From: Marsupella aquatica
Lineage: Eukaryota > Plantae > Marchantiophyta
Assembly: GCA_973895155.1 (NCBI GenBank)
Contig: OZ316894.1
Coordinates: 12,192,828 to 12,256,827 of the forward strand
Direction: 5' to 3'
Length of the DNA stretch: 64,000 nt
Part shown: positions 2,555-41,560 of the stretch, piece by piece
Layout: the number at the start of each line of letters is the position of its first letter
How positions within the stretch are numbered: position 1 is the first letter of the stretch
Made by a program: the position numbers and the translations under genes
Notes under the pieces: generated by a model
Databases searched by the model: none
The model's input: the letters and a program-made list of their open reading frames with translations, nothing else
What the model was told of the DNA's origin: nothing

Positions 2555-4804
2555 TCTCCTCCGGTCCGGAACCACTCTGCCCCTCAGAATGATCTTCGTG
2601 CGCTGCTAGTGATAGACAAGACTTGCAGAAATCCTACAGTGCTGTCACATAAATACACCAAATTAACCCTAAACAAGATTTCACACCATTATAGAGGGAT
2701 TAAATTAATATCTGCTCATAAGGGTAATTCCGAGCTCTCGATGGCGTACAATATGAACGTTTGCGATTCAGGACGCCTCTTTCAACCCGTCACAATTGCT
2801 CGCACATCTTGGATCTTTCAAATCAAGAAATCAGGTGAAAGCCAACCACGTCATTCTCAACCTGCTGTATCAATTCTTGAGGAGCACAAATTGCCTTCAA
2901 CTTCACACCCAAGAAACCTACAGTACCTGGGCAAACAAATCCGGATCCAAATCTTCTAGCAACTCAATCCGGGCCCCAGAGAAAACATTCTACCCTTCTC
3001 TCTCCTCAAGTCATCCTCCAGTAGCCCTCCTCTCTGTGACCTATCGAGACAGTACATTAGTGCTGTCTTCTCCACAGTTGTCTACCGCACCGCAAAAGAA
3101 TCCCCAAACTCTCAACACTCTCGTCACTCGGTCGTTCAGCAAGTTACAAGTTAGGCAAGAGAGATGGGACTCGGTAACAGAACATACAATTCTTCGTCGT
3201 CCACGCTCACAGTTCAAGCCACCACTACTCGATGGAATCAGTCGGTGCAGTCAATTCAGCACCCGCAAAGCGCGACGCAGCAGCTCCACGCCTTCCCGTT
3301 TGTCCGCAGAGCCTGTAGATGGGATGGAGGGAGAAATCTCAAAGCCATCCCAGAACCATACGCGGGCGAAAACTTCACTGCAAAGTAACAAGCACGCGAG
3401 CTACAGTCGTAGATTTCACTTCCAAGCAAGCTACATTCGTCGATCACACTTCCAAGCCATCATTGCGGCCACCACGCACGGCCTCACACCTCAAGGCACG
3501 GAGCGACTTGCTTCTTTCGTCCGCGGAGTCCTGTGATTCTCGGAATTGAATCGACACAATTTTCTCTCCCAGACACCTACAGGGGCGGAATTGCTGTTCT
3601 TGCCGTTGGATGCAGAGTGGAGGCCGACATCATTTCAGTCCCGTAATTCGCTGAGCAACATTGAATGAATGAATGGAAATCATAAAGAAGTGTTTGGGCT
3701 GTTCCAGAGGTTTCTGAGCAATTGGTCCGATACGTACTACTCCTTCAGTCTAAAAGGATGGGACATTGGGACGCAGCTGATGAGCACTGGACACGGAGAA
3801 GCAAGACTGCGCTCTAAAACGTGGCTTCGTGAGGAAGAAAGTTTCGGTCCACGTTTTGGGTACAGTCATGTTACTTCTTCGGTGGGTAAAAGTGGCCTCT
3901 CTCTATGGGTGGCTTTTAGCGTGTTCAAACTCCCACTAATTGCATCTAGCTAGGAAGATTTGTCAATAGAGATATTTGAATTTAGAAGTACATGCAAACT
4001 CCAAGTTAGAGTTGGAGTGAAGACTCTAGAGTGTAACTCTATGCCCCATCATAGGTATGATGTATGTCAAATAAGGTTCGTGTATATTTTTTGTCATGTT
4101 TTTTGTTTACATTCAAATAATGGGCATTTAGGCTAGTTATCATTGAAGATGTTTAAATTTATAATATTACCACTATTTTAATTATATTTACAAATCAAGA
4201 ACTATAGTAAAGGGGTTTGCCCTTTTTTTTACAGTGGTTGTCGTTTAAAAACACCGGGCCATTTTGTGTGAGAAAAATCAAACGGTAGAAAATGGAAGGA
4301 ATAGAAGGAAAAATTTGCAGGAAGAAGTTAGCGTCCCAGCTGCACAGTGCGGCGACCACCCTGTGCCACCGTGCTGTGTGCCCCCATCCCTCTGCTCGCC
4401 AATGCCCTCCTTTGCCTCATGCCTGGACCACCTCCCTCCCCTGTCCTTAACTCTTAACGACATCTTGGGCAACATGACACCTGTGTTATTCACAATATTT
4501 TGGGCTTTTATCTTAAAGACATCTTGAGAAACACGATGCCCTTTTTTATTCACAGCATTCTGGGTGACACGACATCTTTTTTCTTCACGCCATAGTTTTT
4601 CTTCACGACATCTTTTGTGCAATGCACGGGTATTGAGCTTACTCTTCATACTCTTCCCATATGCAAAACTGTGACATATTTGCAAATACAAAAAAATAAT
4701 GATAGTAGTGTCAATAAGAACATCTATAATGACAAAGTACACTTAGAAGTTCTAATTGCATTTAAAACTATGATGTATTATGTCACTCCATACCATGATG
4801 AATC

Positions 4805-10700: not shown

Positions 10701-12000
10701 AATTACTCGCCATTGATGACCATTTGTATCCAACACACCGAATGAAATCAAATTCTTACGCATGCCAGGTACAAACCTGACTCCGGACACTGTGCGCACA
10801 ATGCCATCAAACATTTGAATTTTTACAGACCCAATACCCTCAACTCGACAGGAGTGATCATTTCCCATCAAAACTGAACTGTTTGACACAAAATAAGAAT
10901 TGAAATACTCGCGAATGTAACAAATATGAAAGAAGCAAGCACAATCAAGAATCCACACATCATTTTCTCTCCTAGATGATGTGCATAGGGCATACTCTTG
11001 ATTTCATAAAACATACTCATCATTGAGTAAATCAACTTCTCCATCATCACTAGCCACATTGGCTGATGAAGATTCAGCTGCCTTATCCTTACAATCCCTC
11101 TTAACGTGACCAACCTTGTGACACTTCCAGCAGACTACTGGCTTTCTCTCCTGGGACTTCCCCCTTGAAGCAAATCTTGTCCTAGATTTACTTCTTCCCA
11201 TGCCCTGCGTGCGCTGCTCTTGACGCTTTTGTGACCTCCCACGATTCACATTCAAGGCAGCACCAGACGATGATGATGGCTGAGAGGGCATGGTCAATTT
11301 CTGCTGCAAGTCATCAGTCAACAGAGCACTTACAACTTCATTGTAAGTGATAGTCTTCGTGTCACGATGAAGCAGCACTCGTGACAATGACTGATATGAT
11401 GAGGGTAAAGAGCTAAGCAAGTGAAGAGCCTGCCGCTCATCACTCAAATCCTCCCCCAAATTTTGCAAATCAACGACCAGGTCGTTGAAACCATCGATAT
11501 GGTCTTGAATCTTTGCACTTCCCTCCTTCATCTTGAAGCTCATAAGCTCATAAGCTTCAAAGATGTGTAGAGCCGATTCGATAGCTCCTTTTGATGGTAC
11601 TTTTGCTCCAACGTGGCAAACAATGATGCACAATCGACATGGTCTGCCAACTGCTTGATGACATTAGGCTGAAGATAGAGCATCATGGTGCTCACAGCCT
11701 GCTCCTGCATGTCCTGCCAGTCATCTTATCGACATCATTTGGCTGGTCCTTCAGCAATTTCCCAAGCCCGGTTGCACGGAGTACCCCCTTCACTTGTCGC
11801 TCCCACAACAAGTAGTCTGTGCGGCCATCGTATTTTGTAACCTCAAACTTGGGACCTCCAAGCTTGATTGTCCCCATCCTTTTTCTTGTCACTCGCCGTA
11901 ATACCGGTGACCACAATTCTGCTAGATCTTCCGTTTCCTCCTCTGTTCTCTCCGGTGACTCAACAAAACCCTCCTCCAAGTCACTCATGTGAGAAATCAA
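7719..12000 (-). pseudogene. Copia gag-pol, broken by stops/frameshifts
   Basis: Gag with CCHC knuckle CWKCHKVGHVKRDC (11004-12000); protease WILDCACFFH with degenerate DSG (10623-10958); integrase LWHSRLGH..CEHC, SFIDDYSR, PQQNGVAER (9828-10574); RT YKARLVAK, LYGLKQSPRQW, LYMDDM (8565-9815); RNase H GYVDSD, STTEAEY, CDSQSA, KHIDVRYHF (7719-8513). Confidence 0.96.
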
Positions 12001-21201: not shown

Positions 21202-24179
21202 TGATGTCACTCCGAGGGCTTAGGTCTTAACAATCTCCGGTAAGCAAAGATTTGGCTAGTGTTGGTCTCATTTGCATGGTTGTGTGCACCAGTTTAATAA
21301 TACCCTGCACATCATGTTTGTGGGAGAAGCTATGGTTTGTTGCTTGCAGTTCATATTGTAATCATTAGCATTAGGCCTTGTGGTTGTTTCATGTAGATAG
21401 AATGTGGTTGCCATTGTCCTGTGCGAAAGATTTGAGCGCCCTTCTAGTAAACAGGAGAACTGGCTCTCGTTTGGAAGCCACTGTCAACAGTTGAGCTGCA
21501 TTTGACCATGAAAAGAAGCATTACGAAAGAAGAATTAAAGGACTGAATGGGATCGATAGAAAACATCTGTTATCCTGAGCTTTGGGGAAGTCAAAGGTGA
21601 ACGATTAGAACCTAGGCAAGAAGAAATGTCTTAAGCTCCAGTCCAGGAACCTCAAGCAACAAGGAGTGCTTGAAACTAAGTTCTAATGAAGGAAGCGTAG
21701 AGGTACCCAGAATCGTTACAAGTTCTAATTTTGCAATTGTTCGTGTCTGTGATGAGAGGAAGAACCTTAGATCTCTTCAAGATATGCAGATTGACAGAAG
21801 ATTTTGAAGGTACCCGAGAGTCAAAATCGTCTGTGAAAATGGTCTTTGTGTGGAAGATAAGACATTTGTCCTGTTTACAATCGGAAAACCAAATCGAAGT
21901 CAGAGATAATATTCTCCGACCTTTTATTGTTTCAATACATGCTTGGGAGGAAGATGAAACATAAGTGCTATTCGCAACCCCCAAAACAAAACAAGGAGAT
22001 CCTGTGGCCCTCTATCGTTTCACACGACATGCTTGTGGACTGCAGGGCTAGGGCTAGGTCTAGTTTTAGTTTTTGAAGTAGAAGAGACGGTGTCTCAAAT
22101 AAATTTAAAGACCACCGCTGCTCAAACCTGGGGGGTGTAGAGAAAACAAAATCAAGAAGCCACATCACGTTTAGATTTGTCACATGTTGTGTCATAATGA
22201 GAATTTAAGGAATTGAGAATGTGGCTTTAAGCTGAAGCGTTGGTGGTCTGAAAACCACAAACCAAATTGATGATTTAATGGAGAATGTGGACACCAGAGG
22301 GAAGAAGCCACTACCACCAATAAGGAAATGAACCCAGAAACTCTTTGTGGGGAGTGTGGACAGTGTGGAGAGTTTGAAGGGTTTTAGTAGTTTGAACTTA
22401 TTGTTTGGGTGTCTTTATTGTAACTGAGAAGGGCAAACCCAGATGAATTGTTGAGATGAAGGGAGGTGGACTTGTAGTACTATAGCAAGCTTATCTTTCT
22501 TGCAAGTGCAATTGGGATTAAGGAGTGGAATGAGTCAATCATGCTCATTCAACTAGTCAAGGGAAGAAAAGTGCTAAAGAATTGATTCCCCTACAGTCTC
22601 CAATGTGACTGTTGGAGAAAGAGGGATGTTGATTGTCGCTCTTATGAAGACTATTGAAAAGTGGTTATTGTCATGAGGTGATTATTCAGGAAGAGCTGTT
22701 GGTTCCAATGGGTGATTGGAGAATCTGACGGCTACATGAAATTAATAGAGTTTTATGTGATCAATCATATTTTCTGCTCACCCATCCGCTCAGACATCTC
22801 TCAGACATCTCTTAAATACCCTTTCTATCTAAGAGTACACTTCACCAAGCGTAAATGTCTCAGACATGTCGTACCGTTTCTGTCTAAAAATACACTTCAC
22901 ATGCATAAACATTGGCGCTTATGCCAACAACATAACAATTTGATACAGTTTTCAATAACCAATTTACATAGAGAAACATGTTTTAGGGGGAAAACCTTAC
23001 TCTTCTATAGGTGAAATTTGTGAAATGGCAGCAGATGTTTTGTACCTTACAAAGGAATCTGCGAGACCCAGCTGTTCCTATCTACCGTAGGTGAAGATCC
23101 AGAGCTCTGGTGATGATTTGGACATGGTGGATAACCCTATTGATTTCCAAGGATAGAAAGTACAGGCAATTACAGGAAAGTGTATTGGTCCGTTTGTATA
23201 TTGTGTGCAATGCACAGGTTTTTCCTTCCAGACTCAAGCTTGGTTTCGGCTTGCCTTGTAGGATTTTTTCCAGTTTGAAGGATAATTGGTGGAACTGGCC
23301 ACCATTTCCCCCCCAACTTAGGTTGTCTAAGTCGGCTTTCTTTCCACCAGAGTCTACAAAATCGTGAAATTGAAGCTCACATAAACCCTCGTGTTAGACA
23401 AGATCCTCAGATAGACCGTGGCAGCTGACATCACAACTACATTTTGACTCAACTTAACGTTGCCTCACAACAGGCTAATCTCGATGTATGAAACTCTAAA
23501 CGGAAACACAGAATCCCCAAGGTAAAATTGGCAACGTTCTGGATGTCTAGATTGACGTGGTTGCTTACGTCGTCTCACACGACGCACATTGCCACACCGC
23601 CAACGTGGTTCTTTGTGGGCACGACGTCCTATGCATCGTTAGAGTACTGGGCTAATGTAGATTTCCATGTCCATTAAACGTCGCACGAACTGACGTTAAT
23701 ACAAACAAAATGCCGTGATTGACGACGTTGACTCCCTCGTATAAAACAATGTTAGTTTTTGTAACGACGTCGGGGACACCGTTACGTTTGATGTAATGTG
23801 AATTCGTTCATTGGTTTACGTCATGTGATAAGACGTTGTTATCATATATCGATGTCATGAACGACGTTGTGTGAAAGTGGAAGACTACGTCTGGGTCATA
23901 CCTTGTGAGAAGCTTGGTAACTTTATGAATGAACGACGCCCCGTATATTATGCCGGACCCTGCCATACAACCTTATTGGAGGTTATAAACACACTTAAGC
24001 TAGGGTTACAATGGGGTGAGCATTATTTGGGTAGGCAGTTGGGGTTTAGGGATACACATTCAATATGCATATGGTATAGACGTTGTAATTCACGAAAAGT
24101 GTCATATTAGATAATATTGTTATGGGCCAAATATGTACAAAATGGAGGATGAAGTCGGGCAAGTAAAATAGGCTATACC

Positions 24180-26353
24180 CTAGTCACGCTCAGTCCGCCT
24201 GGTATCACGTCCAGACCTGCGTGTAGAAGTGGGTTGTACGCCTCTCGGGCGCAACTCGTACCTGGAGTCATCCTCCTCTAAGCTAGTGGTACTGGGGGAC
24301 AACGTATCTGCCTGTGTTGCAGCCCTATGAGTAGTCACTGGCCTACTCCCCTTACTGTGTGGAGGTCGCCTAGTGTCATCCCTCCTCCTCCTCTCCCTCT
24401 CCCTCTCCCTCCCCCTCCGTCTATCTGACCTATCTCTCCCTATCTCCCTCTCTCTCCCTCCCTCGGCTCTCTCTCTCTCCCTCCGGCCTTGGCCACTAGT
24501 ACGCCCCCCATGAGTCTCTGCCTCCTCCTGCCCGCAATCTACGTGAGCCTCCTCCTGCAAACCCTCCTCGGGCGGTACCCTGGCTAGCAAGTGATCCTCA
24601 GGGATGGCCCATGCAACCAAGCCCTCCGGAGGAGTCCAATCCTCCACCTGCATGATAGCATTCTGGTCAGTTAATGTCACAGAGTAGGCCTAAAGTCAAC
24701 TACAACCTAGCAATCACTTTAGCTCTTACCCGGTGATCCTCCGGGACTGAGGCCAACTTGGCCCATAGCGCTGCCGGGCCATACCGTTTCGAGTACAGCC
24801 GCTCCTCCTCCGACGGCTCGGCATCGACACCAAACTTGCGTTTCTGCGAGAAAGCAAAAGAGCGTCGTTCCTAAGCACGTATTCAACCCTCTCAGCATCG
24901 GTGCTAACGTTGTTCCATGCGTTGCATATCTAGTTAACGTCGCTCTAACGACGTTTTCACTAAAGCAGTACATGTAACGTCTCAAGGACAACGTTCTTCC
25001 TAAGGTACGTCTCAGATGAAGTTACAAAGCAAATTTAACGTTGTTATGGACGACGTTATGAATGAATCAGGCGACGTAATTTCAAAATCTCGACGTTACA
25101 CTATGGTTTACACCGGAGCAGCGAAATGAAAACGTGGAAGTTGGGTCCGAGACTTACGTAGGTTGCGAGGAACCCTCGCCATCCTCCTTGCCCCCAGAAA
25201 TTGGTTACTAGAAGGCGTCCGCTATTCTTTCGAGCTGTAGTGGCTTTGTCACCCATGTGCACTCGTTTTCCTACTGGGGTGTCTGGGGGTGCTTCAAGTT
25301 CAGACACGATCAAGTTGAAGTCCGACTCGGCCATCCCTTCAGGCTTACGGTACTGCCCTGTCTTCTCGCATTTCATTGCTCGGACCTTGCTTCTCCACCT
25401 GAATCTTCTGTCAGCAAGGTCAACTCACAATCTTCTGCCTGATGTGTCGAAAATCAATCTCTCTGCCATTCTTGAATCCGGCCTGTATGTCATTGAGGAG
25501 TACTTGAAACTTCTTTGTATTGTGCACGAGGTCCTTCCAAGTCGTCCACCCAGGGCAGTGTTTCGTACAGCAGACCTGCACTCGATTCGTTAGCGCCTTC
25601 TCATCAAGCACCTTTGGCTTCGCATCAAAAGCAGCCAGGCTGATGACCGGCAGTTGTTCTTTGCTGGCAGGAGTAGCAACGGTTCGGTGAGGAGAAGCTC
25701 ACCGATGACCTCCTCCGATTGAATGTGAATGTCGAGGTGACCTTCGACCTCTCCTATCTCTGTCCACCCTTGAATCTCGTTCAGCCCTTTTTCTCTTGTG
25801 TGTGTTGCGGCTGTCTCTTTCTCTGCGCTCCTTTCCCTTCCCCTTTTTTTTGTCTCCTCTCAATGCTACTATTGCTACTCAAAGAATGGGAACGACGTCG
25901 CCTTCTGTGTGTCCGCAACTCTGTACTTGAATCATCAGGCTCATATCTCTGAATCCTCACTTGGCTCTTGATGGGAGTAACACAGGGTGGTTGTGAATCC
26001 GGCTCCATCCCAGAGAACGAGGGATAGTCCCAGACTGAGTCCATCAAGGGCGGGAAGGAAGCAAGAGGATCAAGTGATGCCCCCGGAAGGTCGCGCAAGA
26101 ACTCTGGTGCTTGAATGTCGGGCTCAACGTCGGATGCTGGAGCGTTCTCTTCTATGTTCTGAAGGTATTCCAGAAATCGTGACTCCTTCGTCCCAGTTCC
26201 TCCCATGAATTGCCAACTCTGATTGAAAGCATCAATCAGTGAATGTGCTGACCGCAAAGCTGTTCGAACCTTCTCCACCTCCTCTGGGTCTTCCATGGAA
26301 ACTTTCGCAGCATCAAAGTTGATACTGAGGGGCAGATAAGCTGGACGTGACAT
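24180..26353 (-). pseudogene. TnpA-like (Transposase_24/Ptta-type) gene, divergent from tnpD, disrupted
   Basis: Putative exons 26353-25158 (RS-rich, then RRFRWRSK..PEGMAESDFNLIV..KATTARKNSG..NFWGQGGWRGF), 24843-24730 (KRKFGVDAEP..) and 24647-24180 (acidic/RE-rich), with GT-AG junctions. Exon 1 has frameshifts and a TGA. Confidence 0.6.
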
Positions 26354-26871
26354 TGAGGCAAGACTTGGAGCAAATGTAGATGACCTTCACAAAGATTAGA
26401 GCTTCACTAGAGCTTCACTAGAGCCACAAACAGAACAAAACACTAGATGTGGGGTGAGGTGTGTGCGGAATGGTCGAATGACTCACATTCGACACTATGC
26501 CCCGGTATTTTCCGAATAGAATGCGGCAGAGTTCGCAACAATGTGTTTCCGCCGTTCTCTATCTATTTACGTCGTTTTTCACGATGATGCCCTAATTGAT
26601 CGATTAGTAATACGTTGTGCTAGACGACGTTTGCATTTAAACCTTGTTCTGTACACCGTTAAAAGGTAGGGTTTACTGTAACGTCGTGTGGGGTACGGTA
26701 CATGACGTAGGGTTTAAGAAATACGTCGTGTATTGTGTTCTCGGCGACGTAAAGTGAAAGTACTTCGTTTTACTTGACGTAAATATTGTGGTACTATAGT
26801 GGTCTTGACGTTCCATTTCCAAGGCTGAGTTTGCAAGTTTGCGTGTATATGTGTGTATACTATTGCAGGCC

Positions 26872-27390
26872 ATGGCCTCGTGCTCATCGGAGTGGTCATC
26901 TGATGATCGCTATGATGGAGGTGCACATCACCGAGACAGGTACCGCTCTCATGATAGGGGGAGGGAGAGGAGGAGGGAGCACTCACCTGCCAGGTCGAGA
27001 TACCACTCAGCCGAGAGGAGGAGGGACTTATCATCTGATAGGAGCAGGCACCATTCGTCTGAGAGGAGTTGGGATCAGTCTTCAGATAGGGAGTACCGAT
27101 CTAGGGATCATCAACATCGGGAGCGACGAAGGCATAGGAGGTCCCATCGACAGTCCCACCGCCACCGCCGGTCCAGGTCTCCCTCTGATGACCACACACC
27201 CCGACACCGATCACCCATGCCGGAGGATGAGGATAGGTTTGGAGAGGCCATGGCTGCCCTTCAGGGGATTGGCCCAGTCCGAAAGATGCCCTGCCCATGT
27301 AGTAGATGCAAGGGCGTCGTCTCCCACGAGAGGACCACTGTCCTTAGCCATTTAGGCCTCCACGGCCGTTACGTACCCCTGACACATCAG
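26872..27390 (+). CDS. Shared first coding exon: RS/RE-rich region plus transposase-associated Zn-binding domain
   Basis: ATG at 26872, 173 codons, phase-0 donor CAG|GTAATT at 27390/27391. CPCSRCKG..RTTVLSHLGLHG matches the CPCxxC..V..HL...G N-terminal domain of CACTA transposases. Confidence 0.85.
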
Positions 27391-27540
27391 GTAATTCATA
27401 AACCTTTATTGACACTATTCAATTCATTAAGTCCTTATTTTTGAATATAACATGTTTGGGTTTCTTGAGTTTTCTTGAGTGTTTAGTTGGAATGGTTTTT
27501 TCCCTGATTTCTGAAGTTCTCTTGTTCACATGTGAAACAG

Positions 27541-28360
27541 ATTTTGTGTGTGGTCTCTCCGCCCTTGGACCACATGAGACAGGTTGCACGTCGCGCGCTC
27601 ACAACACTAGTTCCCCCATCAGCACTCGATGCCACGTTAAGGGCAATAGACCGTGTTTTTGATAGGAGGAGGAGGGTCATACGGAGTCACCCTATTGAGA
27701 GGGGAGTAGAGGTCACCACTAGACCTCGGTCCATTACGTCTCGTATCCCTAGGACGGTGCCGCCACATTGTCCTTTTCGTGATGCCTCTTTTTCCCGAGC
27801 ACCAAGAGAGTTAAGAGGGAGAGCCTTGGACATCATAAAGGACTCATTCCCAACCCAGTTTGGCCTCCCTATGGTCCTGCTTGTTCGGGAGCCTATTGTA
27901 GTTTGGGATAGGCCATGGGTCCTCCTCCCATCCACATTGGGACCAGACGTAGGTCTTGGATTATTTGCACTCATGGATATTGTGGTGCCGGAAGGTTGTG
28001 CACCTGAGGACCTGCCCGAGTTGATTCCATTTTATGGGCCAAAGTATTCGGCCCATAGATGGCGTATCTTGTCTCGCCAATGCCCAACCTTTGGTCGGTA
28101 TGGCATGTCACTAAAGTTGGACCCTAGGTATACTCAGATGGATGCATGGTTACCCCCCTCGTACTGGAAACTTGGCGGGTTACATCAATAGCATAGTGGG
28201 CTGTCGGCATTTGGGGTTCCGCCCCAACGCTGAGTGGCATGAGTACCATGACCAGAGTCACCCTCGTTTGCCCTTGGGATGCAGTCACTACATCCTGACA
28301 CATGCCACCCGCACCATTCGAGCAGGGGATGAGATATTTGTAGACTATGATTGGCATTGA
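27541..28360 (+). CDS. SET-domain (lysine methyltransferase-like) exon inside transposase intron 1; one 4-nt frameshift
   Basis: Acceptor AAACAG|ATT is in frame with exon 1. Motifs: PSTLGPDVGLGLFA (GxGLFA), FYG, GNLAGYINS, PNAEW, ATRTIRAGDEIFVDY. Removing the GCAT at ~28144-28147 joins ORFs 27532-28191 and 28142-28360 as QMDGYPPRTGNL. Confidence 0.85.
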
Positions 28361-28503
28361 AGATTATATATGTTATTGATCACTTATTCATTACTCAGAG
28401 TGAGACTTATATTGGATTCTTTGACCTTCATTACCTCATGCACTATTGGGAACACATTGTCTAATTTGGGGATGACCTTATCTAATATTGACGTCTTGCA
28501 TAG

Positions 28504-31500
28504 GATGGTCCAAATATAACACCTACACCTCATCCATCGATGATGACGGAGTCAGCCCGTTCGTTCCACATGCGAGCCACATTATCTTTTTCTGACGACG
28601 AAGATGTTGAGAGTGATCATGTGCATGAGGACGAGGATGTGGACGAGGATGTGAATGAGTACCATGATGCACATGATGGCGATTTTGATGAAGATGTAGA
28701 GGATGATATGGATGCACCTATTCTTGAAGAGGATGCTTTTGCGCACCTTGTGGACATCCGCTTTGGACCTCATGTACCTGAGGGTGACCCTCCTGTCATG
28801 GAACTAGACAAAGATGATTGGGACCAATTGGAAACTGAATCCAGGACTCCGCTATTCCAGGGTTCCCCGATCTCACGGTACATTTCTCTGAGGTGCTATT
28901 ATAGTTTTTCTACTGTAATGTTGCTTAAGGGTGTGCATAAACCCTAAGTCCCCAATTGGACCATCCTCAATGGCATGCCTTAAACTAATTAAAAAGCTGG
29001 TTTCTTTGTGGTTTTCAATGCAAATGCAGGTTGGGAGCCACACTCTTGATGTTGAATTTACAGGGGGTTTTCAATGGATCAGATGTCCATACAGATGCAC
29101 TCTTTGCGTTGTTCCACAACAAACTCTTGCCTCAACCTAACAACCTTCCAGGATGTGTGAGGGAGGCTAAGAAGTTGTTATCATCTATCGGACTGGCGTT
29201 AGAGACTATACATATGTGCCCTCATGGGTGCATCTTGTATAGAGGACCCTACTTGGACCTCACCCATTGCCCAATTGAGCGATGTGGCCTTCCACGGTAT
29301 CGTCCTGATACCATTGGAGACAAGATTGCTGAGAAGGTAATGACATCCTTCTGTACCACATCTGTATTTTAGTATTTTTTGACGTTGCCCTCGTGAGTAG
29401 TACGTCTTTCAACTAGAAGTAAATACCCCTAACGTCTCCCTTGTGATTTTTACGTCTTTCCATATGACGTTTTTTAGTCCAACGTCGATGTTTGCACCGT
29501 AAAAGTTTAGGGAACGTAGATCTGCTCAACATGAAACAATAACGTCGTTCTGGACAACGTTCACTTTTAGGATACGTAGTTATGTTCAATACAGAAGTAA
29601 TACGTCGTATTGAACATCGTAAAGATTTTTGGAACGTAGTTATCATCAACATATTTGTGATGTTAACGACGAAATGCCGCCTCATGGTTGTTGTACATTC
29701 AGGTACTGAGGTATTTTCCAATCACACCCCGATTGCAGCATCTATACCGGCGAAGACACCTATCCTCCCTACAGACTTGGCATGCCGAGACCAAATCCCC
29801 AGCAGGGATAATGCGGTATCACCAAGATAGTCCAGCATGGAAGCACATTGATGCCACATGGCCAGATTTTGCTGCAGAGCCACGGAACGTTCGGTTGGGG
29901 TTGGCCATAGATGGGGTAAACCCATACAAGCAGCGACGGAAACCAAAGTCCATTTGGCCAGTTCTTTTGATAAATCAGAACATCCCTCCATGGTTGGCGA
30001 TGAAAAAAGGTCATGTTCTCCTCCTAGCTATCATTCCCGGTCCCGAGGCTTGCAAGAATCCAGATGTTTGCTTGGCCCCAGCTTATGAAGAGCTACATGA
30101 CTTGTGGGAAATTGGGGCTCCAACAACAGATGTCACCCGTGCACCGGACAATGGGAGGACATTCAACATGAGAGTCATGATCACCCATTGCACCACTGAT
30201 GGGCCAGGTAATTCAAAAACCTTACAAAATGTGATTATATTGTGCTAAATGACTTTATGTCTTCATTTGGCTTCTTTTATTGTGGGAATATGATGGGGTT
30301 TCTTTGGCAGGCATGGGCACAATATCAGGCTTGAAGGTGGCTGGGTACTCAGGTTTCCCTTCATGTGGCCCTGAGTTGCATGGGAGGTACTCAGTACTAT
30401 TGCACAAAACCACATATGAGGGCAGCAGGATGAGATTGTCAATGGATGACCCCATGCGATGTAACACAAGACATTGGGCACAGACTGAGTTAAGACCATG
30501 TCCTAATGCGCCTTCAGCAGAAGCTCAAATTCACATGGCAGAGATGGTGGAGGCTAAGCTGCTGAAACCCAAAGATTGTGGAGTAAACCGACGCTCAACA
30601 TTGTGGGACTTGCCTTATTGGAGGGTAGGTACAATACACCTATCAAATGTTGTGTATAGATTTTTTCATCAACTCTCATAATGCTAGAGTTTTTCACTTG
30701 ATTACCATGTTGTGCAAGCAGATGCTCAAGATCCGGTGGCTACTGGACCCCATGCACATTGAAGTGAATGTCGCAAAGAATTTGGTGAATCACATGTATG
30801 GTGAGAATGATACTCGTGGAGTTCGTGTGAATGCAAAGAATGTAGGAGTTGTGAAGAGCTATTGGATATCAGGTACATGATAAAACATAGATCAACCCTT
30901 AATTTGTAAGAAGTTGCCCAGATTTGCCTGAAACCCCAAACCCTAACAAGTTGATTCTCTTTAATTATTGGACAGCACGTACTGGGGTGACACCACCAGC
31001 CCCTTGGATTTTGCCTCGAGACATTCTGAAGGATGTGAATGGGATGATTTGTGAGATGAAGTTCCCGAGCCATTACGGAGCTGGATTCCGTGGGTGCACA
31101 ACGAGGAATGAGTACATCCCCCCGATAGGGTTGAAGTCCCACGATTATCACAAGTTGATACAGCATGTGCTCCCTGCAGTGTTGCGTTGTTGCGATGATT
31201 CTAGAGAGCGCCACCTACTCCGACTCACAATGTACGAGTTGTGCTCCATTTTCAGGTTGGAAATATCTTACTCGTGGATTTTGTGGTGTTATGGGACCAT
31301 AAATTTATGGTGTCTCAAACAACATTCTAGAGAGGATACGTAGTCTCTTAATACTTTACGTCGTCTATAACTAGGTAATGTAAAAATATGATGCCCCATA
31401 CGACGTATTCAAGGTCGTATAAGTCACCCCTCTTCAGGAACGTCCTACAGAGCGACGTTTGTAGGAATCTTAGTAGAGGGAATGTTAGTAGGCATTGAAT

Positions 31501-32762
31501 TGGTAACCATCTTAGCCCACTTTCAGATTGGGCGGTGATATTTATTCCTGTCATGTTTTTGAGTGCCTCATAGGTGGGTATGTGCCAAGGAGATCAAGGA
31601 GTCAGAGATTCCTTTGATGAGGGAGAGGACGGCGCAAGTGATGTGCAATTTGGAGCGAGTGTTCCCCCCAGCACTGTTTGACATGCAAATGCATTTGCTA
31701 TGTCACCTGGTGGATGAAGTTGCCATTGCAGGCCCAGTCCATGCCCGATGGATGTATTGGGTTGAGCGATATATGAAGGTGCTCAAGGGTTGGGTGCGTC
31801 AACCCGCTCGACCTGAGGGAAGTATGGCAACAGGGTTCATTATGTCAGAGTGTCTTTTCTATTCCGGGGGGGTGATAGGGAGTTTGGATAGCAAAGCTCC
31901 CACAACTTGGGAAGAGGCACAAGATGATGACAATGGTGGGCTGCGATTGATGGGTGCGGCCAAGAAGCGATCATTGGATGATGACATCTTTCGTCGACAG
32001 ATCCATAATTATGTGTTGGGGAATCGACCGGAGATGTCTGATTGGAGGGAGATGTATAGGTATGGTACTCTAAAATTTTAATCGATTGTGAATTGGATTT
32101 GAGAAGGCTGCAAATCTCTAACAATCTTGTGACAACGTATTTGGCAGTGCATGGTTGGAGCTTCAAGTGGGAGTTGCGCAAGCAGGTCGTGGCATTGCAT
32201 CATTTCGTGTCTGGGCTTTGGAGCGCATGGAGAGCTCTTGGCTGTGCATGGGTCTACATCCATTCCCATTGATGTACAAAACATCATTAGAGGGCCAGGG
32301 ATGCGGGCCACGACTCATACACACATGTTTGAGTCAGGGCATCACTTTCGGACTTGGAGGACAGACCATATGAAGAAGAGTACTTGTAACTCTGGAATCT
32401 TCATGATGACTGATGTAGATGATGTAGAGGTTCCTTATTGTGGGACAGTTGTGGACATTTTAGATGTTCATTTTGGGTCATTTGTCACCACTGTACTAGA
32501 GGTGAGGTGGCACAAGTCGATCATGTCACCCCTAGCGAGAGCTACGATGGTTGCGGATGAGTGTGGTTTTTATTGCGTGGACACAACCCGAGTTGCACCC
32601 ACAGGGACTGAGTTTAGTGACACCATAGTTTTTCCTAGCCAGGTGGATCAGTGCATTATGGTTCCGATGCAGACCATGAGAGGATGGTCCATTGTCATAC
32701 CAATTTTCCCTCGGCGAAGGAAGGGCTTCATGGCATCAGTCCTTGCAGACGATGCGGACTGA
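28504..32762 (+). CDS. TnpD-type CACTA transposase (Transposase_21, DUF4218, DUF4216-like), exons 2-9; one apparent 1-nt frameshift near 32230
   Basis: Phase-consistent GT-AG exons 28504-28877, 29030-29336, 29703-30207, 30311-30624, 30722-30872, 30976-31255, 31574-32059, 32148-32762. Motifs IHMCPHGCILY, VLRYFPITPRLQ, DSPAWKHID, RNVRLGLAIDGVNP, LDPMHIE, GLKSHDYH, FDMQMHLLCHL, RWMYWVERYM. Confidence 0.93.
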
Positions 32763-33398
32763 CACTATCCTTCACACCCTCCATTTATATGTATTGGCTA
32801 TGCCCACCTTCCACATATATATTGACATATGTTTCGACGTTTGAGATCTGGCAAACTGGAGGGAGAGTTGTGCAAAGTTTCTTCTTTCCTCACTTTATAG
32901 CTAAGAACACATTAAAAAGCATTAAACCTCGGCCTTCGAACAACCTTCAATGGGTCCTAGCACGTAAACCCTTATCACGTAGGCCAATTGACACTTCGAA
33001 CTTATTAACGTCAACCTCAACGTCATTAGACAATCAAAGGTCGCTTATACCCATAATGAAGATGTTAATCTATAGTTACGTCATAAATACATTGTACAAA
33101 CGACATATACATAGTACGTCCTTGGTTTACCGCGTAGTAGAGGACGTAGATTGTGTTACCGTGTCTTAAACGACGTAAACGTTTATTTAACCATTCTTCT
33201 GATGACATTCAAAGTTTCAATCGACGTTACTCACAAAACACATTACAAATATAAATTGCCTGGGAGGGACTTTTTATTCATGCGCTCAGAAACATACAAT
33301 GTGCACATAAGGCATGAGTCTGACTCCAGTCTAAACTGATTCCAATCCTAGGCAAATGATGCTCCTCCGTCTCCAGCTGACCTTGGCACTAGTGTAGC

Positions 33399-33958
33399 TT
33401 AAGGGGTCCCTTCACCAGACCAGTAGTACTCCTCATCTGCCTTCCTCTTTTTGTACGAATCATGCCTATTGCTGGCATTCCATTTCTTACGGACCACTGC
33501 TTCACCAACCTTCAGCCTTTCAGCCTCTATCTCAGCTGCACAGCTTTCCTTGTAGTCATACATCACAATATCAAGTTCAGTCGGTGACAACTGACATTTA
33601 GCCAACTTTGGTGGACAAGCCTCACCATCATCATCCTTGGGCGTATCGTCCAGCATCAAATCGTCCCCTGGATGCAGCAAAAACTCTTCTGGGTCCAACT
33701 CCTTATTGCCCAGAATGGAGTACTGTACCCAAAAAATCGAGATGAATGCACGGACTCTGCAAAGTGCTCGATCAATCCAGGATAGTCACTGAAGTGCTCT
33801 GTGACTTGTTTCCAGGTATTGGCAAGCAAGTATTCCGTCTTTGAGTTACAAAACTTGTCTATCACACCTCCACGACAAAAAAAGCCACGAACAGTCTTGT
33901 CTTCTTCACCTAGCGGAAGAAAACAATAGTGGACATCCTTGAATATCTTACGCACCAT
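33399..33958 (-). CDS. Orphan accessory gene inside the CACTA element (~185 aa if a 1-nt frameshift near 33705 is repaired)
   Basis: Overlapping ORFs 33656-33958 (ATG start) and 33399-33698 have protein-like sequence, an acidic stretch and a KKRK NLS-like motif. Convergent with tnpD and inside the TIRs. Confidence 0.55.
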
Positions 33959-34470
33959 AGCTGAAGACTTTCAATCTCACTCTGCAAATTCTGTGCACTA
34001 TCGTACCCGTAGGACATCTGAAATCACGAATGACCTGTGCAGTGAGGTCCCAGTAGCCTTGCCCCAAAAACTCCCGCAAAAAACCTTACGCATGCCAATT
34101 GGATTCCATTAACGTCGTTGCCCACATTGGTCATATACGTCTAACATCGCCCAACATCCATTATACGTCGTCATAGCATAGTATCCGTTATAGCCACGTC
34201 TGAAACGACGTACATCTATACGTCGACCCAACCCTATTCTGCTACACCGTCTGGGACGACGTCTACATGTTTGCCTCGTTATAAAAGACGTTAATAGCCC
34301 TATTGGGAGATACGTTAAATTAAAGACCCTCTAGAAGACGTAAAATGGGAAGGAAAGTCAAATGGGTACACCCATTTTGGGTTACGACGTAGAGGGAGAT
34401 GTACTGGGGAGTAACGTCGTGTCACATGATGCGAAAGGAAGTCACGACGTAGTGAAATGTAGTTGTGCAT

Positions 34471-36520
34471 GAACTGCTCTGAAATATTAAGCAATACCTT
34501 TTTCTTTGTGTAAAGTCTCACCTCTTTAGGCATCGAAAGTACTGTCTGTCAGAGTCTTGAGAACAATGGTTGTAGTTCATCTAGCCAACTTTGCAGAATT
34601 AGTTTATCTAACTAACTTTGCAGAACTGGTATTTTAGTATGGATGTCTATTCGTGCTTCAATTGTACAGTTAGCATACCATGATATGAAATACTTTGTGC
34701 TTGTAGACACCTCACAACAACACAAACAACACCTTCTTATGTGGAAAATATAAATTGTTTGTAGGCTTGTGTAGTTTGCCATAGAGAACCAAAAATCACA
34801 TTTTAAAGTCTCCAAACTCGGTATTCGTTCCCTTTAAGAACAAGATGGGGTTGGTTTGATGTAATAAACTAAAAACAAAGCTTTAAGCTCTTGTGTCACA
34901 CATAGTAATCAATCTTGACTACTTTAATCAGGTACTTTGAAGATCGCTCCACAGCGGTGAGTAGTTTTTGATGATAACTCAACATCAGATAACCTTCAAT
35001 TAAGCAAAAGATTGCAATTAACAAAACACAAGGAAAAATCTCTCAGAGTATGCTTAAGGGAGTCTGGAATAGACCAAGGTTACTCCTTAGACATAAGTAA
35101 TAATGGAATGACTTTAAGGGAATCCAAATCCACACGGCTTTTCAGATCTAAACTGCATACTAGAGTATCCTTTTAAAATGCCGGCAACATGTCTTGACCT
35201 TTCTTCCTAAGTGATACTTAGTCAAGATCTAAAAGGATAAATACTTCAGCATTTAGATGGTACTAAGCAACATGAAGGTGGAAACATCATTTCCAATGCA
35301 ACTTAAACTCAATGAGTTAACTCTAAGAACTTGTGAGATTACAATGTGTCACCAAAGCGGAATCTGACATTATAATTCACGAGATTCATAACTGAGGTTT
35401 TACTTCAAGTATTTGGGTTCCAAAATACAAGAAGGAGGTAAGTCTCTCCAAATGTTAAACCTGATCTCGAACTCATAGATTCATGATCAACTAGTTTAAC
35501 ACAAGGGAGAGGCAAAACTGCAAAACTTAACCATCTCTCTACACTAGGGGAAGAGGTATAAATAGTGATGAACTACAGAATAAGAGGTCACAGGGTCGAA
35601 GAGACATGCCTCTTCATACCCCTCAAAATTTTAAAATGGCGATTCAGTAAGTGAAAAGCCGGAAAAAATGGCTAAGTATGAACTCTTAAACTCTTAAAAA
35701 CTTAAACTCTTAAAAACGTAAAAACTTAAACTCTTAAACTCTTAATTTCGGTATACTAAAAATTGAGTAGATTCAACTATTTTTAACTTTCTACTCCTGG
35801 TTCAGAAAACTCTGAAATTTTTCCAGCAGGGTTTCCTAGGTACAGACTACAGCCTAAAGAAGTATGACAGCTTCTAAAGCTCTAGAACACATTTCTAAAA
35901 ATCAGATAAGATGCACTACTCTAAAAACTAACTAAGAACACTTAGAGACTTCTTCAAGCTTGCTGTCGGATGTCCTCTGGTTCTAGTAACTCCACAAGGG
36001 TAACAATTCGGTTCTGGGTAACCTCTATCAGCTTAGCTTGGCGTGGGGATCCTCTGGAGTATGGTAGGCACCTCAGTTGTCTCTCAGGATACATCAAAGG
36101 CATTCTCTTCATCAAATAACAGGAATCTATACGAAGAGCTTCTCTGTACATCCCGATCACATCATAGTTGTTGCAGGTGGCAGCATATACTTGGGGATAG
36201 TGATGCAGAAACTCATCACTATTCATCATCCTGGAATAGAAGGGTCGAAGTCTCCATTTGACATCTCTGAAATACCGGTTGAAGCTGGGCAGAGTTTGAG
36301 AGGTAAGGTGGAAGAGAAGTCAGTAATGAGCGCCTATGTCTTGCATTCCTTCCCTTTCAAGGTGAGCTCTTCATCCGTTGTGGAGTCCCGTTGAACTAGT
36401 TGTAAGATGTCACGATCACAGAGTCGCCAAATCTTAAGGTGTAACTCGTAAAGAAGTGAACTAGTAAACTCGTAAACTGAGTTTACTCGTAACTTAGGAA
36501 CTTAGTAACTTTGAATGCTG
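34471..36520. mobile_element. Probable decayed LTR-retrotransposon sequence, interrupted by the CACTA insertion (other part ~21400-23428)
   Basis: Minus-strand frame PKEVRLYTKKKVLLNISEQFM continues into SAATVYLR across the CAT TSD. Also short AAACTCTTAA tandem runs (35680-35745), a TATA-like TATAAATAG (~35557) and an orphan ORF at 35954-36229. No diagnostic domain was recognised. Confidence 0.3.
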
Positions 36521-37630: not shown

Positions 37631-40600
37631 AAAGAAATATACACACTTTTTATATACAAAGGGACCAAACAGAGTACAAATGAACAAACAAAAGAGGGCC
37701 CAAGTGGACAAAACCAATCGAAAAAGAAATGAGCAAAAGGGAACCACTAAACACCAAGAAAGAGGAACTAAAAGTAAGAAATGAACAATAGGGAACCCCT
37801 AAAAACCAAGAAAGAGAGAGAGACTAAAACTAACCCAAGCGGACCGAGGTCCTCATCATTCCTACCGATTGTGGCAAAAAGCTAATGGTCCACATCAAGA
37901 GTCAAAACTAGATCGGCAAGTGGGATTGGAACATCCTCAAGGGGAGCTAGCCGCTGCGGAGGCACACTAGCACCCACTGTAAGAGATCGACGATAGATGG
38001 CCCGAGCTTGAGCACGCTGTAAGGTGACTGAAATGCGTTGGCGAAAGTGCGTGGTCAAAATAGAAAGCGGGGGTCCGGTGGGACCCATTCGGGCATGAAC
38101 ATCCCGGGCAGCTTGCCGAAGAAGCCCATCAAACTGAGGATGAAGACGCCCAAATAGCTCCACAGCAAGGGGGAGGAAGCTGTCGGATGAAGCTCGTGCA
38201 GCATATTTGGCCTCCTTCATTGTTGCCGCACGTGACGCTGCTGCCCCTGCCATAGTTGCCGCTGTCCCAATGATGTCTTGGCGCAATGGGTTTGCCACCA
38301 CAACATCTGCCAAAGTACGTTGACCCTCACGGACCATGGTAAGATCCACCCGTAACCGCTGTGATGGAGGACCAGGTAACTCGAGTACCACCTCCCGCCG
38401 CACGCATACCAAAGAGCCAGAGAGAACCTGAGCAGTCGCATCTCGCACAGCGTCGTGAACAATAATGGTTTCACCTCCCAAACTGCACCGAAGAAGATGG
38501 ACACCTGTGGCATCACAAGGCTTCCCACAAGTGCAAGAAGGAGGTAAACCTGCAAGAAGTGGGTGGGGCAGCCCCAGACGAAGACGCATGGCTGTGGAGA
38601 ACTCCGTTGAAGACATCCGCAAATGAGGAATGACTGGATTGGCCTGAAGCCATCCACCTGCGCCCTTCCCTCCAGAAGAAAGAATCCGAGCTCGGTCCGT
38701 GTCAGGTGCCTTGGAGAGGATGCTGGAAAGGGTGAATGTGTGCATACGCCCAGCGAGGTCTGCCTGAAGACGAACGGGATCCAAGGATAAAAACTCCTGA
38801 AAAGAAGGTAACGAGGCATGAACGGGATCTGGTAATGAGGACCGCGCTGCGCGCAAATGAACCTGAAACGGGAGGGAACCCTCCTCTACCTCCATGAGAG
38901 ATGAAAGTAAAAAAGGGCGATCCTCAATAAGAAAACGATCGGCCAACAACGAGAAGGCGGCCGCCCATGCACCCAAAAAGGCCAAAGGTGCAAGGCTCTC
39001 AATGGAATTAAGCCCAAAACCACCCTGCGAGATAGGAAGACTGAGTTGTCGATGAAGCCACGAAGATGAGAGCAACGTACCCGGACCTAAAAGAGAGGCC
39101 AGGGTCTGACGAATGGAGACATCAAATGCTCGAAGGTGGAGACAAAGATCCTCGGTAGGGGGATGCGTCCTAGCCAGATAAGACGCATGAGGGTGGATGC
39201 ACCTCAACAACATCCCAAATGTTGCCTGAGAATCTGCTAACTTAGGGAGCATAGGAGTATGGGCTAAGGCAGCCTGTATAGAGTCAGCGATGAAAGATGA
39301 GCAAAAGGAGGCGGTACCGACTGGGGAGCCAAGGACCCGAAGACCATCGGCTGGACGTAAGAACCCTGGGGGAAGCACAAGATCAGAGGGTAACCCAGCT
39401 GGACTCCATGCACGACTCTTCACAGGCTGAACTCGTAAACTGAGGCCCATCAAATGGGTGGAAAGAGTGGCGAGGGCAGAAGTAACCGCGGCAGGAGGAC
39501 CAATGATGTGGGTGTCATCTGAAAGGGAGGGGAAGATACACTGGGGGTGGGCCATGGCAGCTTCCCGTAAAGCTGTAAAATGGGCAATGGCAAAAAGAGG
39601 CCCACCCAAAGGGTCACCCTGACGTGTACCTTCTGCAGAGGAAAGAGTGGTATACACACCTGTAGAGGAGTGATGACTATAGAAGAGTGGGGCCTCGAGT
39701 CCATAAAAACAACGGACAAAGGGGATCAGGGACTGGATGTCTGGATCCGCCGCCCTCAAAGCACGAAAAATGGCTGCCCGAGAAACCGTATTAAAAGCGT
39801 TAGAGACATCAACCTGGAGGACAACCCAATCAGGGTGGAGGTCCAATGTAGCTCGAATACCCGCAATAACCGTCTCACAACCGCCAGGAACGCCAACTGC
39901 AAACTGATGTGGAGAGAGATGATCCGATAGTGCAGAGCGAAACTGTGAGGAAAGTGTGCGAGACACAAGACAAAGAAAAACCTCCCCAATAGCAATTGGC
40001 CGAACACCCGGTGAAGACTTAGCCATGGCCAATAAACGAGAAGCACTCAAGAGCCGAGAGACGGGAGGAGGCAAACGACCGGCTGCAATACACTGGCAAA
40101 AGGAGAAGAAAACTGGAAAACCAAACTGAGGATCCTCAAGGGGGAATAAATCACGAAAATGCTCAAAGACATAGCCGGAGGGGCCACCAGCAGAACAACG
40201 TGGGGCATGGAGGAAGGCATAGGTGAAGTGGTCCCTACTAAACTGAAGATCCTCATCAGGCTCAAAATCCTCGACAAACAAAGGGAGCTGATCATGGGGC
40301 TGCGGATGGAGATCCTGAAGGGCCAATGAGGTGACCTCGCCAGGGGGGGCTGGTGTGGTGGGAGAAAGGGCCTGGACAGCCCGACGATATTCACCAGCCT
40401 GGGCTAAACGACAAGAGCGACGAAGACGTCTATGCTCAGGGGGATGAGAGTGGCGAGCTGGGTCAGACAAAGCACGGGCGGTAAAAGACCGGGCGCGAAG
40501 AAAGTACTCTTCCTGAAGCTGCTCCCAATCTCCCCGCAAAAAACGATGGATACGAGAGGCAGTCTCACGGTGACCCACACGACCACCATGACTAGGGAGG

Positions 40601-41560
40601 GTAAGAGTCCACTATGGAAAAAGCATCAGTAAAGACCAATAGGAGACCTCCATAGGATGCGCCAAGATAAGCTGCATGAGTTGCAACAAGGAGGACCGAA
40701 CTATAGGGCGCAGCGCCAGAGGAATGTGGTTATAAAGGCGAGGTCTAATGTACCCTGGATGGTAGGCTGGAAGGGGGTCTAGAGTGCGAACCCAACTCCA
40801 TGCCTGCTCGGGAGCCTCCAAGGAGGGAGGGGCAGAGCTAACCGGGTCAATAGGGGGCTGAGGCTGGGATTGTGCTTGTTGGCGACGATGGCACCGGCCC
40901 CGCCTGCGATGATGAGGGAGGGAGATGCCAACCCATCCACAGTCAGGACAAGTATGCAGGGGACGCTCGTCCGGGGAGGGAGCAGGGAAAGACTGGACAG
41001 GAGGTGGGGGTGGAACAGATGTGGACGAGGAGGCCGGAGGAGGATGATGAATGGGTGGAGGGGGAATGGGGTGGGGAGAGGAGCCAGGGCGACGATGGGG
41101 TGGGCAGTAGACGGGGGGGACTGGCAGAGCATCGGGCATGGGATCATCACGAAGATCCAGTGAAGAAGAGCAAACACGAAGACGGCCACGAGGGGGAGGG
41201 GAGGACGGGGGAGAAGTGTGGGGTGGGGCTGGGCGCTTGCCCCGCGCCAACACTCTCAACGTAGACATGACAGGCCGCAACCCGATAAAAGCAAAAACGC
41301 ATCAAGAAGCGACAAAAGGCCCAACCGAGGCATGTGAAAAGAAAGGGGAGGCGATGGAGAGAGCCCACCGCATCAGGTCGAGAAACGGCACCACCGCTAG
41401 CCTAGGAAACCATTGAGCAGGTGCAGGAACAGTAAGGAACAAAGCTGAAACGCCCGTCGATCTGTCCGTTGGGGAGTCGACGCGAGTGAAGATCCGCCCT
41501 CTAGATTGAGCGTGCGGCAACAGCTCCCGAAGGCAACAACCAATTGGAGGAGAAGCGATG
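37631..41560 (-). mobile_element. CRE-like non-LTR retrotransposon with restriction-like endonuclease (5' boundary uncertain, may extend to ~42616)
   Basis: Single long frame ZnF-RT-CCHC-RLE. The T-rich 3' UTR (37631-37881) is shared with copies at 55472 and 62336. Confidence 0.88.
37882..41268 (-). CDS. RLE retrotransposon protein (~1128 aa) with one in-frame TAG at 40612-40614
   Basis: ORFs 40612-41280 and 37882-40578 share a frame. N-terminal CPDC..HHRR..H Zn finger; RT GVRPIAIGE, DVSNAFN, GTRQGDPLG, LSDD, VLGSPVG; CTC..H...C knuckle; RVD..ADV..KEAKY and PLAVELFG endonuclease motifs. Confidence 0.9.

Follow-up and report, generated by a model that had tools for sequence, protein, structure and literature searches.

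A bryophyte CACTA transposon with a SET exon in its first coding intron: a possible splice choice between transposase and lysine methyltransferase

The window analysed here, a stretch of 64,000 nucleotides of the liverwort Marsupella aquatica, contains a complete CACTA/EnSpm element (Table 1). Its inverted ends match perfectly over 13 bp and are of the CAC..GTG type described as acceptable for EnSpm (PMC12730594), starting with CACAA rather than CACTA or CACTG, and the 3-bp target-site duplication of this superfamily, CAT, lies outside both ends. The ends were located from the edges of contig depth, being too short for a generic inverted-repeat search (minimum length 14). Depth, which is not a measure of copy number, climbs across the element from 21.5 on the flank to 123-158 on the near-identical inner contigs among those listed for run X1. 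The element family is multi-copy, and the window copy is decayed, being broken in the SET exon, in TnpD and in both accessory genes.

Table 1. Features of the element in the window
Feature	Position	Strand	Details
Complete CACTA/EnSpm element	23432-34467		11,036 bp; 13-bp inverted ends, 3-bp target duplication
Left terminal inverted repeat	23432..23444	+	begins CACAA; target duplication CAT 23429-23431
ACGT/ACGACGT clusters	23534..34450	.	both subterminal regions, intergenic stretches, two long transposase introns
Divergent spliced accessory gene	24180..26353	-	candidate TnpA-like DNA-binding protein; frameshift near 25421
Shared coding exon 1	26872..27390	+	R/S/H/D low-complexity stretch; CxCxxC-x13-H-x4-G knuckle (27292-27366)
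Predicted intron	27391..27540	+	150 nt, 69% AT, phase 0; retention would give an in-frame stop
SET exon, predicted alternative last exon	27541..28360	+	helical pair, disordered linker, minimal SET domain
Spacer	28361..28503	+	143 nt, AT-rich; predicted 3′ UTR of SET form and end of long intron of transposase form
TnpD exons 2-5	28504-28877, 29030-29336, 29703-30207, 30311-30624	+
TnpD exons 6-9	30722-30872, 30976-31255, 31574-32059, 32148-32762	+
Convergent third gene	33399..33958	-	frameshift near 33744
Right terminal inverted repeat	34455..34467	-	target duplication CAT 34468-34470

The first coding exon (519 nt, 173 amino acids) is open and ends at the donor CAG/GTAATT in phase 0. An acceptor-like TGCAG stands before it, and a non-coding leader exon is therefore likely. 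The exon carries CPCSRC..HLGLHG and matches PF13963 with E 6e-4, at a score under the curated cut-off. The original prediction, made from the letters of this DNA, had described such an exon with a CPCxxC..HL..HG domain, and its frame and donor proved correct; it had also called the exon RS-rich, a feature that we dropped because composition differs among relatives, whose low-complexity stretch is Ser-rich or acidic instead. Conservation of the exon is limited to the knuckle of about 25 residues. The acceptors AACAG/27541 and CATAG/28504 are each in phase 0 with the exon-1 donor, as had been proposed, such that at the DNA level one upstream exon fits two downstream acceptors in the manner of Spm. 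No AATAAA was found in the spacer that separates the SET stop from the second acceptor.

That second acceptor leads into transposase exons, again as expected: a nine-exon GT-AG model of TnpD is open across 1053 amino acids and contains PF02992 (E 1.6e-38) and PF13960 (E 7e-30). The C(2)C/H(3-4)H signature is present, its second part as HLLCH and its first as F-x-x-C, the first Cys having become Phe at 30356 in the window copy; the base listed in 4/4 runs encodes Cys. TnpD of this copy also has a frameshift near 32233.

The exon reached from the first acceptor matches the SET profile PF00856 at 28115-28357 (E 2e-4). However, four extra bases near 28142 in the window copy disrupt the frame entered at 27541, which ends at a stop at 28189-28191; AGYINS, PNAEW, GDEIFVDY and the 28360 stop are consequently read in the +1 frame. 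Contigs lacking this insertion are listed in three of four runs (insertion-free contig depth 310/478 in X1, 801/1669 in X2, 1467/9356 in X3 and 0/607 in X4), and all seven homologues compared read through the site as [DN]GYP. Thus, the SET exon had been recognized correctly by its motifs and domain, but its supposed uninterrupted frame is ruled out by the frameshift, and an intact SET protein cannot come from the window copy.

The SET-exon family comprises 104 representatives from liverworts and from peat-moss elements. Its fold was modelled on an intact homologue (P0004) that is about 50% identical to the first part of the window exon. The predicted model (mean pLDDT 86.8) matched SET8, SETD2 and LegAS4 with a Foldseek probability of 1.00, and VIA aligned it with Set1 (Z 13.1, rmsd 2.9, 126 aligned) and SET8 (Z 12.9, rmsd 2.8, 129 aligned). 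Judged from this model, and in line with the profile match, the exon encodes a genuine SET-fold domain, as first suggested. SET domains are recognized by the motifs GxG, YxG, NH(S/C) and ELxxxY, and all are there except the His of NH. In an alignment of 58 homologues, GxG was found in 50/54 and 55/55 of those aligned at its two positions and [YF]xG in 57/57 and 56/57; the SAM-binding Asn of motif III was kept in 53/58 and the catalytic Tyr in 49/51, while the motif-III His was replaced by Ser in 57/58. The missing His, together with Pfam SET scores close to or under the cut-off (3/7 close homologues pass), would suit a catalytically weak or dead domain that binds a lysine to shield or read it, or an exon whose main role is to divert splicing and limit transposase, any alternative last exon being in competition with the transposase mRNA. 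We consider this unlikely: the Asn and Tyr are nearly invariant, the same His is missing from the aligned LegAS4, which is reported to be active, and a pure splice sink would not require the selective constraint described below (dN/dS 0.3). The SET form is probably a catalytically active enzyme.

Which protein it would modify is less clear-cut. The best Z values lie within 1 unit of each other for Set1, SET8, PRC2 and SET7/9, so that the substrate is not readable from the fold; the plant ATXR5/6 profile gave E 0.17-0.2. Pre- and post-SET cysteine clusters were absent from the 58-homologue alignment, and assignment to any host SET class (SUVH, ATX/SET1, ASHH, E(z) or ATXR5/6) was dropped because of this and the tied Z values. 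A profile built from eight close homologues had no match among PDB sequences, whereas one from 58 sequences matched LegAS4 best (E 3e-5); at 23-26% identity and in a tie with other matches, this led us to drop a bacterial origin. SET7/9 and SET8 also act on non-histone proteins. Their place among the tied folds and the minimal SET architecture would fit an active splice form whose substrate is the element's own transposase, its accessory protein or a host silencing factor, and the knuckle common to TnpD could gather both proteins in one complex. Against this non-histone reading, which has perhaps one chance in several, LegAS4 is described as methylating H3K14, and the other transposon accessory enzymes in the published accounts modify chromatin or DNA. 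A histone substrate on the element is, by a narrow measure, the better expectation.

Selection on the exon was assessed from codon comparisons. Over 185 core codons, dN/dS was 0.28-0.34 between locus L003 and four copies of the peat-moss family; among the peat-moss copies it ranged from 0.24 to 1.09, with 0.60-0.96 in the linker. Variants relative to the window copy were synonymous in 24/40 of those listed, against 25% expected (p 4e-6). Values of 0.26-0.49 between the window and distant loci are unreliable, dS being near saturation. In a quick tree of the SET sequences, the window copy grouped with Logan P0008 and P0009, inside a starred set that holds Calypogeia P0007; a first-pass metagenome scan confirmed 0/48 candidate stretches. 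Since lesions affect the window copy and several from peat moss, the exon could be imagined as a neutral host fragment decaying in place as Pack-CACTA cargo. This idea is very improbable and largely refuted by the sequences compared: the exon holds the same position in elements just 35-50% identical at the protein level, synonymous changes are in excess, and no close plant host SET was found among solved structures with the 58-sequence profile. These comparisons indicate instead that purifying selection (core about 0.3) has maintained the SET exon across many diverged CACTA elements, the outcome that the original prediction had asked for.

Diverged elements repeat the order of zinc-knuckle exon, SET exon and transposase exons, and the phases match. 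Among 14 JGI loci, the Cys knuckle lay upstream of the SET match in eight and TnpD exons downstream in seven, most of the others being too short on that side. In L001, L003, L006 and L007, the first YAG past the AT-rich intron is in phase 0 with the SET frame. The window has one YAG before its acceptor, with a stop after it; L002 has four earlier YAG, which makes its acceptor ambiguous, and at L010 and L014 the acceptor position reads AA. In the window, L001, L004 and L005, an acidic TnpD exon opens at a second phase-0 acceptor, 143-189 nt past the SET stop. These alignments point to a conserved layout of one donor and two acceptors. An in-frame Met no more than 12 codons from the SET acceptor is present in 5/6 loci, and several homologues share one at a single column; translation of the exon by itself is therefore conceivable, as a nested gene with its own start (internal, or reached by leader splicing) that leaves exon 1 to the transposase. 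The acceptor-like site ahead of the exon-1 ATG would allow this, and many database proteins begin at that Met, although bacterial-type gene callers would place them there anyway. Such a stand-alone gene seems a rather poor prospect, given that donor and acceptor fit in phase 0 in three clear independent lineages, that the intervening intron is merely 111-156 nt across loci, and that Logan P0022 (423 aa; 2141-nt contig, RNA or DNA) joins knuckle and SET in a single natural ORF. Automatic gene models of Riccia sorocarpa (P0025, P0033 and P0045) also join the knuckle to SET, and in P0062 and P0097 parts of SET are joined to Transposase_21; near the window family, no knuckle-SET protein appeared when longer proteins were searched with the first part of the SET exon, a weak negative. 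From the predicted junctions, both splice forms are probably made.

The original prediction also suggested that the shared N-terminus might target the SET enzyme to the element. This is unsupported because only the small CxCxxC-H knuckle is conserved. A likelier address system would be formed by the ACGACGT clusters and the divergent accessory gene. ACGACGT occurs 25 times in the window, 24 of them within the element (2.15 expected for the whole window), and ACGT reaches 8.5/kb inside the element versus 1.8/kb outside, with 33/kb in the intron at 29340-29702 and 0-5/kb in the SET and TnpD exons sampled. At L014 it is TCGCAA that is enriched (29 vs 4.7 expected), the core of the motif CCVTCGCAAA described for Arabidopsis TnpA-Spm1. 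The divergent gene weakly matched its peat-moss counterpart (E 0.05, best of 819 ORFs). TnpA-like proteins of CACTA elements are expected to have tandem tri-helical HTH domains; the model of a relative of this gene shows three N-terminal helices (mean pLDDT 65) and no significant fold match. Because the matches are at coiled-coil level only (Foldseek E >=1.5, VIA Z <=7.3), we keep 'TnpA-like' as a provisional label. The convergent third gene had no Pfam match.

Transposase and SET parts are combined in one gene also in SETMAR, a host gene in which SET is fused to a mariner transposase domain. The present case differs in being a mobile element predicted to yield SET and the catalytic transposase as alternative rather than joint products. 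Closer parallels are maize En/Spm and Arabidopsis EN/SPM3, described as CACTA elements with one alternatively spliced gene for TnpA and TnpD (PMC13547354; bioRxiv 10.64898/2026.08.24.746577). Like them, the window element has clusters of a short family-specific motif and one unit predicted to yield transposase and a second protein; unlike En/Spm as described, that second product is a SET-fold protein rather than TnpA, a separate divergent gene provides the TnpA-like candidate, and the clusters extend to internal introns and intergenic stretches. VANDAL elements with VANC, as described, share the three-gene composition and dense motif clusters in non-coding regions and introns, but belong to MuDR, and VANC is a DNA-binding protein without SET (PMC5735166); the window transposase is PF02992, not MuDR. 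The ACGACGT clusters resemble those reported to be bound by TnpA and VANC.

No described SET-bearing CACTA family was known to the original prediction, but the EnSpm/CACTA superfamily already has one in print: PAG2 of Plavaka elements in red algae, a proposed chromatin modifier (bioRxiv 10.1101/2025.02.11.637652). By its description, PAG2 is an accessory gene of its own that joins SET with a DNA adenine methylase domain, whereas the window has its SET exon within a transposase intron and no methylase domain (PF01555 had no match in the window ORFs or 47 homologues). SET domains are likewise described in Phytophthora HarbingerS and MuDR families and in proto-Helentron-Pi (PMC12730594, PMC4067079), which are other superfamilies in other hosts; there the transposon-borne domains are carried in separate ORFs or in accessory genes.

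The reading we favour, at about even confidence, is that the zinc-knuckle exon would be spliced either to the SET exon or to the transposase exons, and that the SET form, acting probably by SAM-dependent lysine methylation, would mark the chromatin of the copies of the element and so keep them active. More tentatively, the divergent accessory protein may bind the ACGACGT clusters and recruit the SET form, the knuckle serving as a docking module that reads no DNA. It is conceivable, at similarly guarded confidence, that these elements form an ancient, undescribed CACTA lineage of mosses and liverworts in which splicing from a single promoter and knuckle exon yields either transposase or a SET methyltransferase of a class without a match among host enzymes, and an element-encoded DNA-binding protein makes it a self-contained, motif-addressed histone writer.

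The plant anti-silencing factors in the accounts compared here, VANC and TnpA, are described as DNA-binding proteins, TnpA-Spm1 requiring host demethylases; if the proposal is true, the mark would be written directly by a lysine methyltransferase that a land-plant transposon itself encodes. In the published descriptions SET in the EnSpm superfamily is a separate gene, and SET-bearing transposons have so far been supported by annotation alone; here the exon lies inside a transposase intron. Marchantia, Physcomitrium and Sphagnum make the question of the SET exon testable, and a compact SET enzyme whose address system can be exchanged might find use in epigenome editing. For the element itself, a splice switch between moving and marking chromatin would, if true, constitute a compact circuit of self-regulation.

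Tracing of the element ends from the edges of contig depth revealed a perfect inverted repeat of 13 bp, located at 23432 and 34467 with CAT on either flank, and the interval is a CACTA/EnSpm element of 11,036 bp with CACAA ends. Its transposase is described by a nine-exon GT-AG model that is open over 1053 residues. The first cysteine of the C(2)C motif is replaced by phenylalanine and, relative to other copies, there are indels near 25421, 32233 and 33744; this copy is therefore very likely dead. The minus strand of the element contains two further genes, one divergent and at the left, the other convergent and at the right (33399-33958), the latter showing no Pfam match and no likeness to the open reading frame on the same side of L014, a JGI locus encoding a relative of the SET exon.

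Exon 1 (26872-27390) comprises 173 codons without a stop and ends at a phase-0 donor. The original prediction, that this donor could be joined to acceptors at either 27541 (SET exon) or 28504 (TnpD exons), agreed with the sequence, as both acceptors are present and both are in phase 0. For exon 1, Pfam searches returned a weak match to the transposase-associated domain (E 6e-4), and beyond it a SET match at 28115-28357 (E 2e-4) and strong TnpD matches downstream of the SET exon. The proposed entry into the SET frame at 27541 was upheld, but the uninterrupted frame to a stop at 28360 was not: that frame meets a stop at 28189-28191, and the next frame encodes the latter half of the SET domain. 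Four bases at 28142 are absent from the contigs of three of four public runs, and seven of seven homologues read through the matching point, indicating that the lesion is not the state of the family. At 28138-28147 the 4-base insertion gives ATG-C-ATG, resembling a 3-bp duplication plus one base, and could be the excision footprint of another CACTA element.

The layout was compared across fourteen JGI loci encoding a SET relative (L001-L014). A knuckle (the CxCxxC-H motif of exon 1) was found upstream of SET in eight, and TnpD exons downstream in seven. Because the divergent gene of L014 closely matches many Sphagnum sequences, L004-L014 were assigned to a peat-moss family; L001, L002 and L003 represent further lineages. 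Past the knuckle the order is a phase-0 GT, 111-156 nt of AT-rich sequence that contains a stop in frame, and then an AG entering the SET frame in phase 0. This junction is clear in the window, L001, L003, L006 and L007; L002 leaves it ambiguous, and L010 and L014 have it in mutated form. A second phase-0 AG, 143-189 nt past the SET stop, starts an acidic TnpD exon in the window, L001, L004 and L005. Riccia gene models join the knuckle to SET, and a single frame spans both in P0022 (from a 2141-nt Logan contig). Translation of the SET exon on its own is a less probable alternative to this joining; five of six SET exons have a methionine within 12 codons of their start. Regarding the predicted knuckle-SET splice, the intron length is divisible by three in five of six loci, with an in-frame stop in each; this may be a remnant of an ancestral read-through linker such as that of P0022, or chance. 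Separately, P0030, P0050, P0091, P0062 and P0097 (Riccia gene models, the source of P0050 aside) splice from within or just past SET into the transposase. These models may reflect errors of gene prediction, or else a third form that joins SET to the transposase; in the window, a weak phase-0 GT is present immediately ahead of the region of the catalytic tyrosine codon.

Coordinates of predicted knuckle-SET introns (by locus) and of other features of the window
Feature	Location	Position	Strand	Remarks
Knuckle-SET intron	window	27391-27540
Knuckle-SET intron	L001	706-849
Knuckle-SET intron	L002	406-561
Knuckle-SET intron	L003	884-994
Knuckle-SET intron	L007	352-468
Knuckle-SET intron	L006	3340-3455
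LINE-like element	window	37882-41301	-	909-aa open frame, RVT_1 E 6e-8; upstream 229-aa frame
Copia LTR retrotransposon gag-pol	window	7719-11663	-	in-frame stops
PLAC8-family host exon	window	2087-2605	-	E 1e-25
Very high-depth repeat	window	34770-35500		just right of element; from contig depth

Searching 1.84 billion representatives with a profile of the SET family recovered 104 proteins at E 0.001 or better. Among the 30 looked up, the names were Riccia sorocarpa and Calypogeia fissa, the remainder being Logan, ENA, JGI and NCBI proteins that are unnamed or 'hypothetical'; the closest named homologue is from the liverwort C. fissa. Three distant C. fissa members (P0049, P0111, P0081) have different N-termini, Cys/His-rich in P0049, and are perhaps in other elements or domesticated. 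The model of P0004, an intact homologue (mean pLDDT 86.8), comprises paired helices, a linker that is disordered, and the SET domain. Foldseek matched it to many SET enzymes at probability 1.00, and VIA Z scores for Set1 (13.1), SET8 (12.9), PRC2 (12.6) and SET7/9 (12.4) amount to ties that single out no substrate. Across 58 aligned sequences GxG and [YF]xG are conserved, the motif-III asparagine is kept in 53 and the catalytic tyrosine in 49 of 51. The residue two before this tyrosine is mostly small and aliphatic which, following the F/Y switch, would presumably permit several methyl groups. The customary motif-III histidine is serine in 57 of the 58, and is likewise missing from LegAS4, the best profile match, for which H3K14 methylation has been reported.

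Over 185 core SET codons, L003 compared with four peat-moss copies gave dN/dS of 0.28-0.34 at dS 0.43-0.47, and the SET-exon linker gave 0.60-0.96. Copy-to-copy SET values ranged from 0.24 to 1.09, as expected after insertion, and TnpD values among three copies from 0.36 to 0.56. Among the 40 best-supported variants relative to the window copy (246 more lie beyond these), 24 were synonymous, where 25% would be expected (p 4e-6).

Conservation in exon 1 is confined to the knuckle, in which C, C, C, G, H and G are invariant across four lineages; the low-complexity part is variable. Dense ACGACGT clusters occupy the element ends, the intergenic spaces and introns, with 24 of 25 window matches falling inside the element (23534-34450; 2.15 expected). 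In L014 it is TCGCAA that is enriched instead, reported to form the core of the binding motif of Arabidopsis TnpA-Spm1 (bioRxiv 10.64898/2026.08.24.746577). TnpA and VANC are both described as working through short-motif clusters. For a reader of such clusters, the natural candidate is the divergent gene. It shows weak likeness to its peat-moss counterpart, and a fold search with a modelled relative gave no clear match. We therefore infer that the knuckle may be a docking module, which would engage the divergent-gene protein or the transpososome rather than read DNA itself. Across the region searched, P0227 of C. fissa shares 84% identity with the peat-moss family's divergent gene, possibly through moss-liverwort transfer or contamination.

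In the literature on transposon-borne SET and CACTA domains (Repbase and Dfam lying outside this scope), no paper was found that describes a SET exon within CACTA elements of mosses or liverworts. SET domains are reported in Phytophthora HarbingerS and MuDR (PMC12730594) and in proto-Helentron-Pi (PMC4067079), and Plavaka PAG2 is reported as a separate methylase+SET gene of an element in the EnSpm superfamily (bioRxiv 10.1101/2025.02.11.637652). Splice and split-gene architectures have been described for Spm elements (PMC13547354; bioRxiv 10.64898/2026.08.24.746577); the alternative splicing predicted here would parallel that of Spm, differing in that the second product would be a SET-fold protein. 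The SET exon is real; it is conserved and under selection in a CACTA lineage that is widespread among bryophytes, and is found here in a copy that is very likely dead. It belongs to a known kind, the transposon-borne chromatin enzymes, here in the form of a putative enzyme whose SET exon is predicted to be spliced in the manner of Spm.
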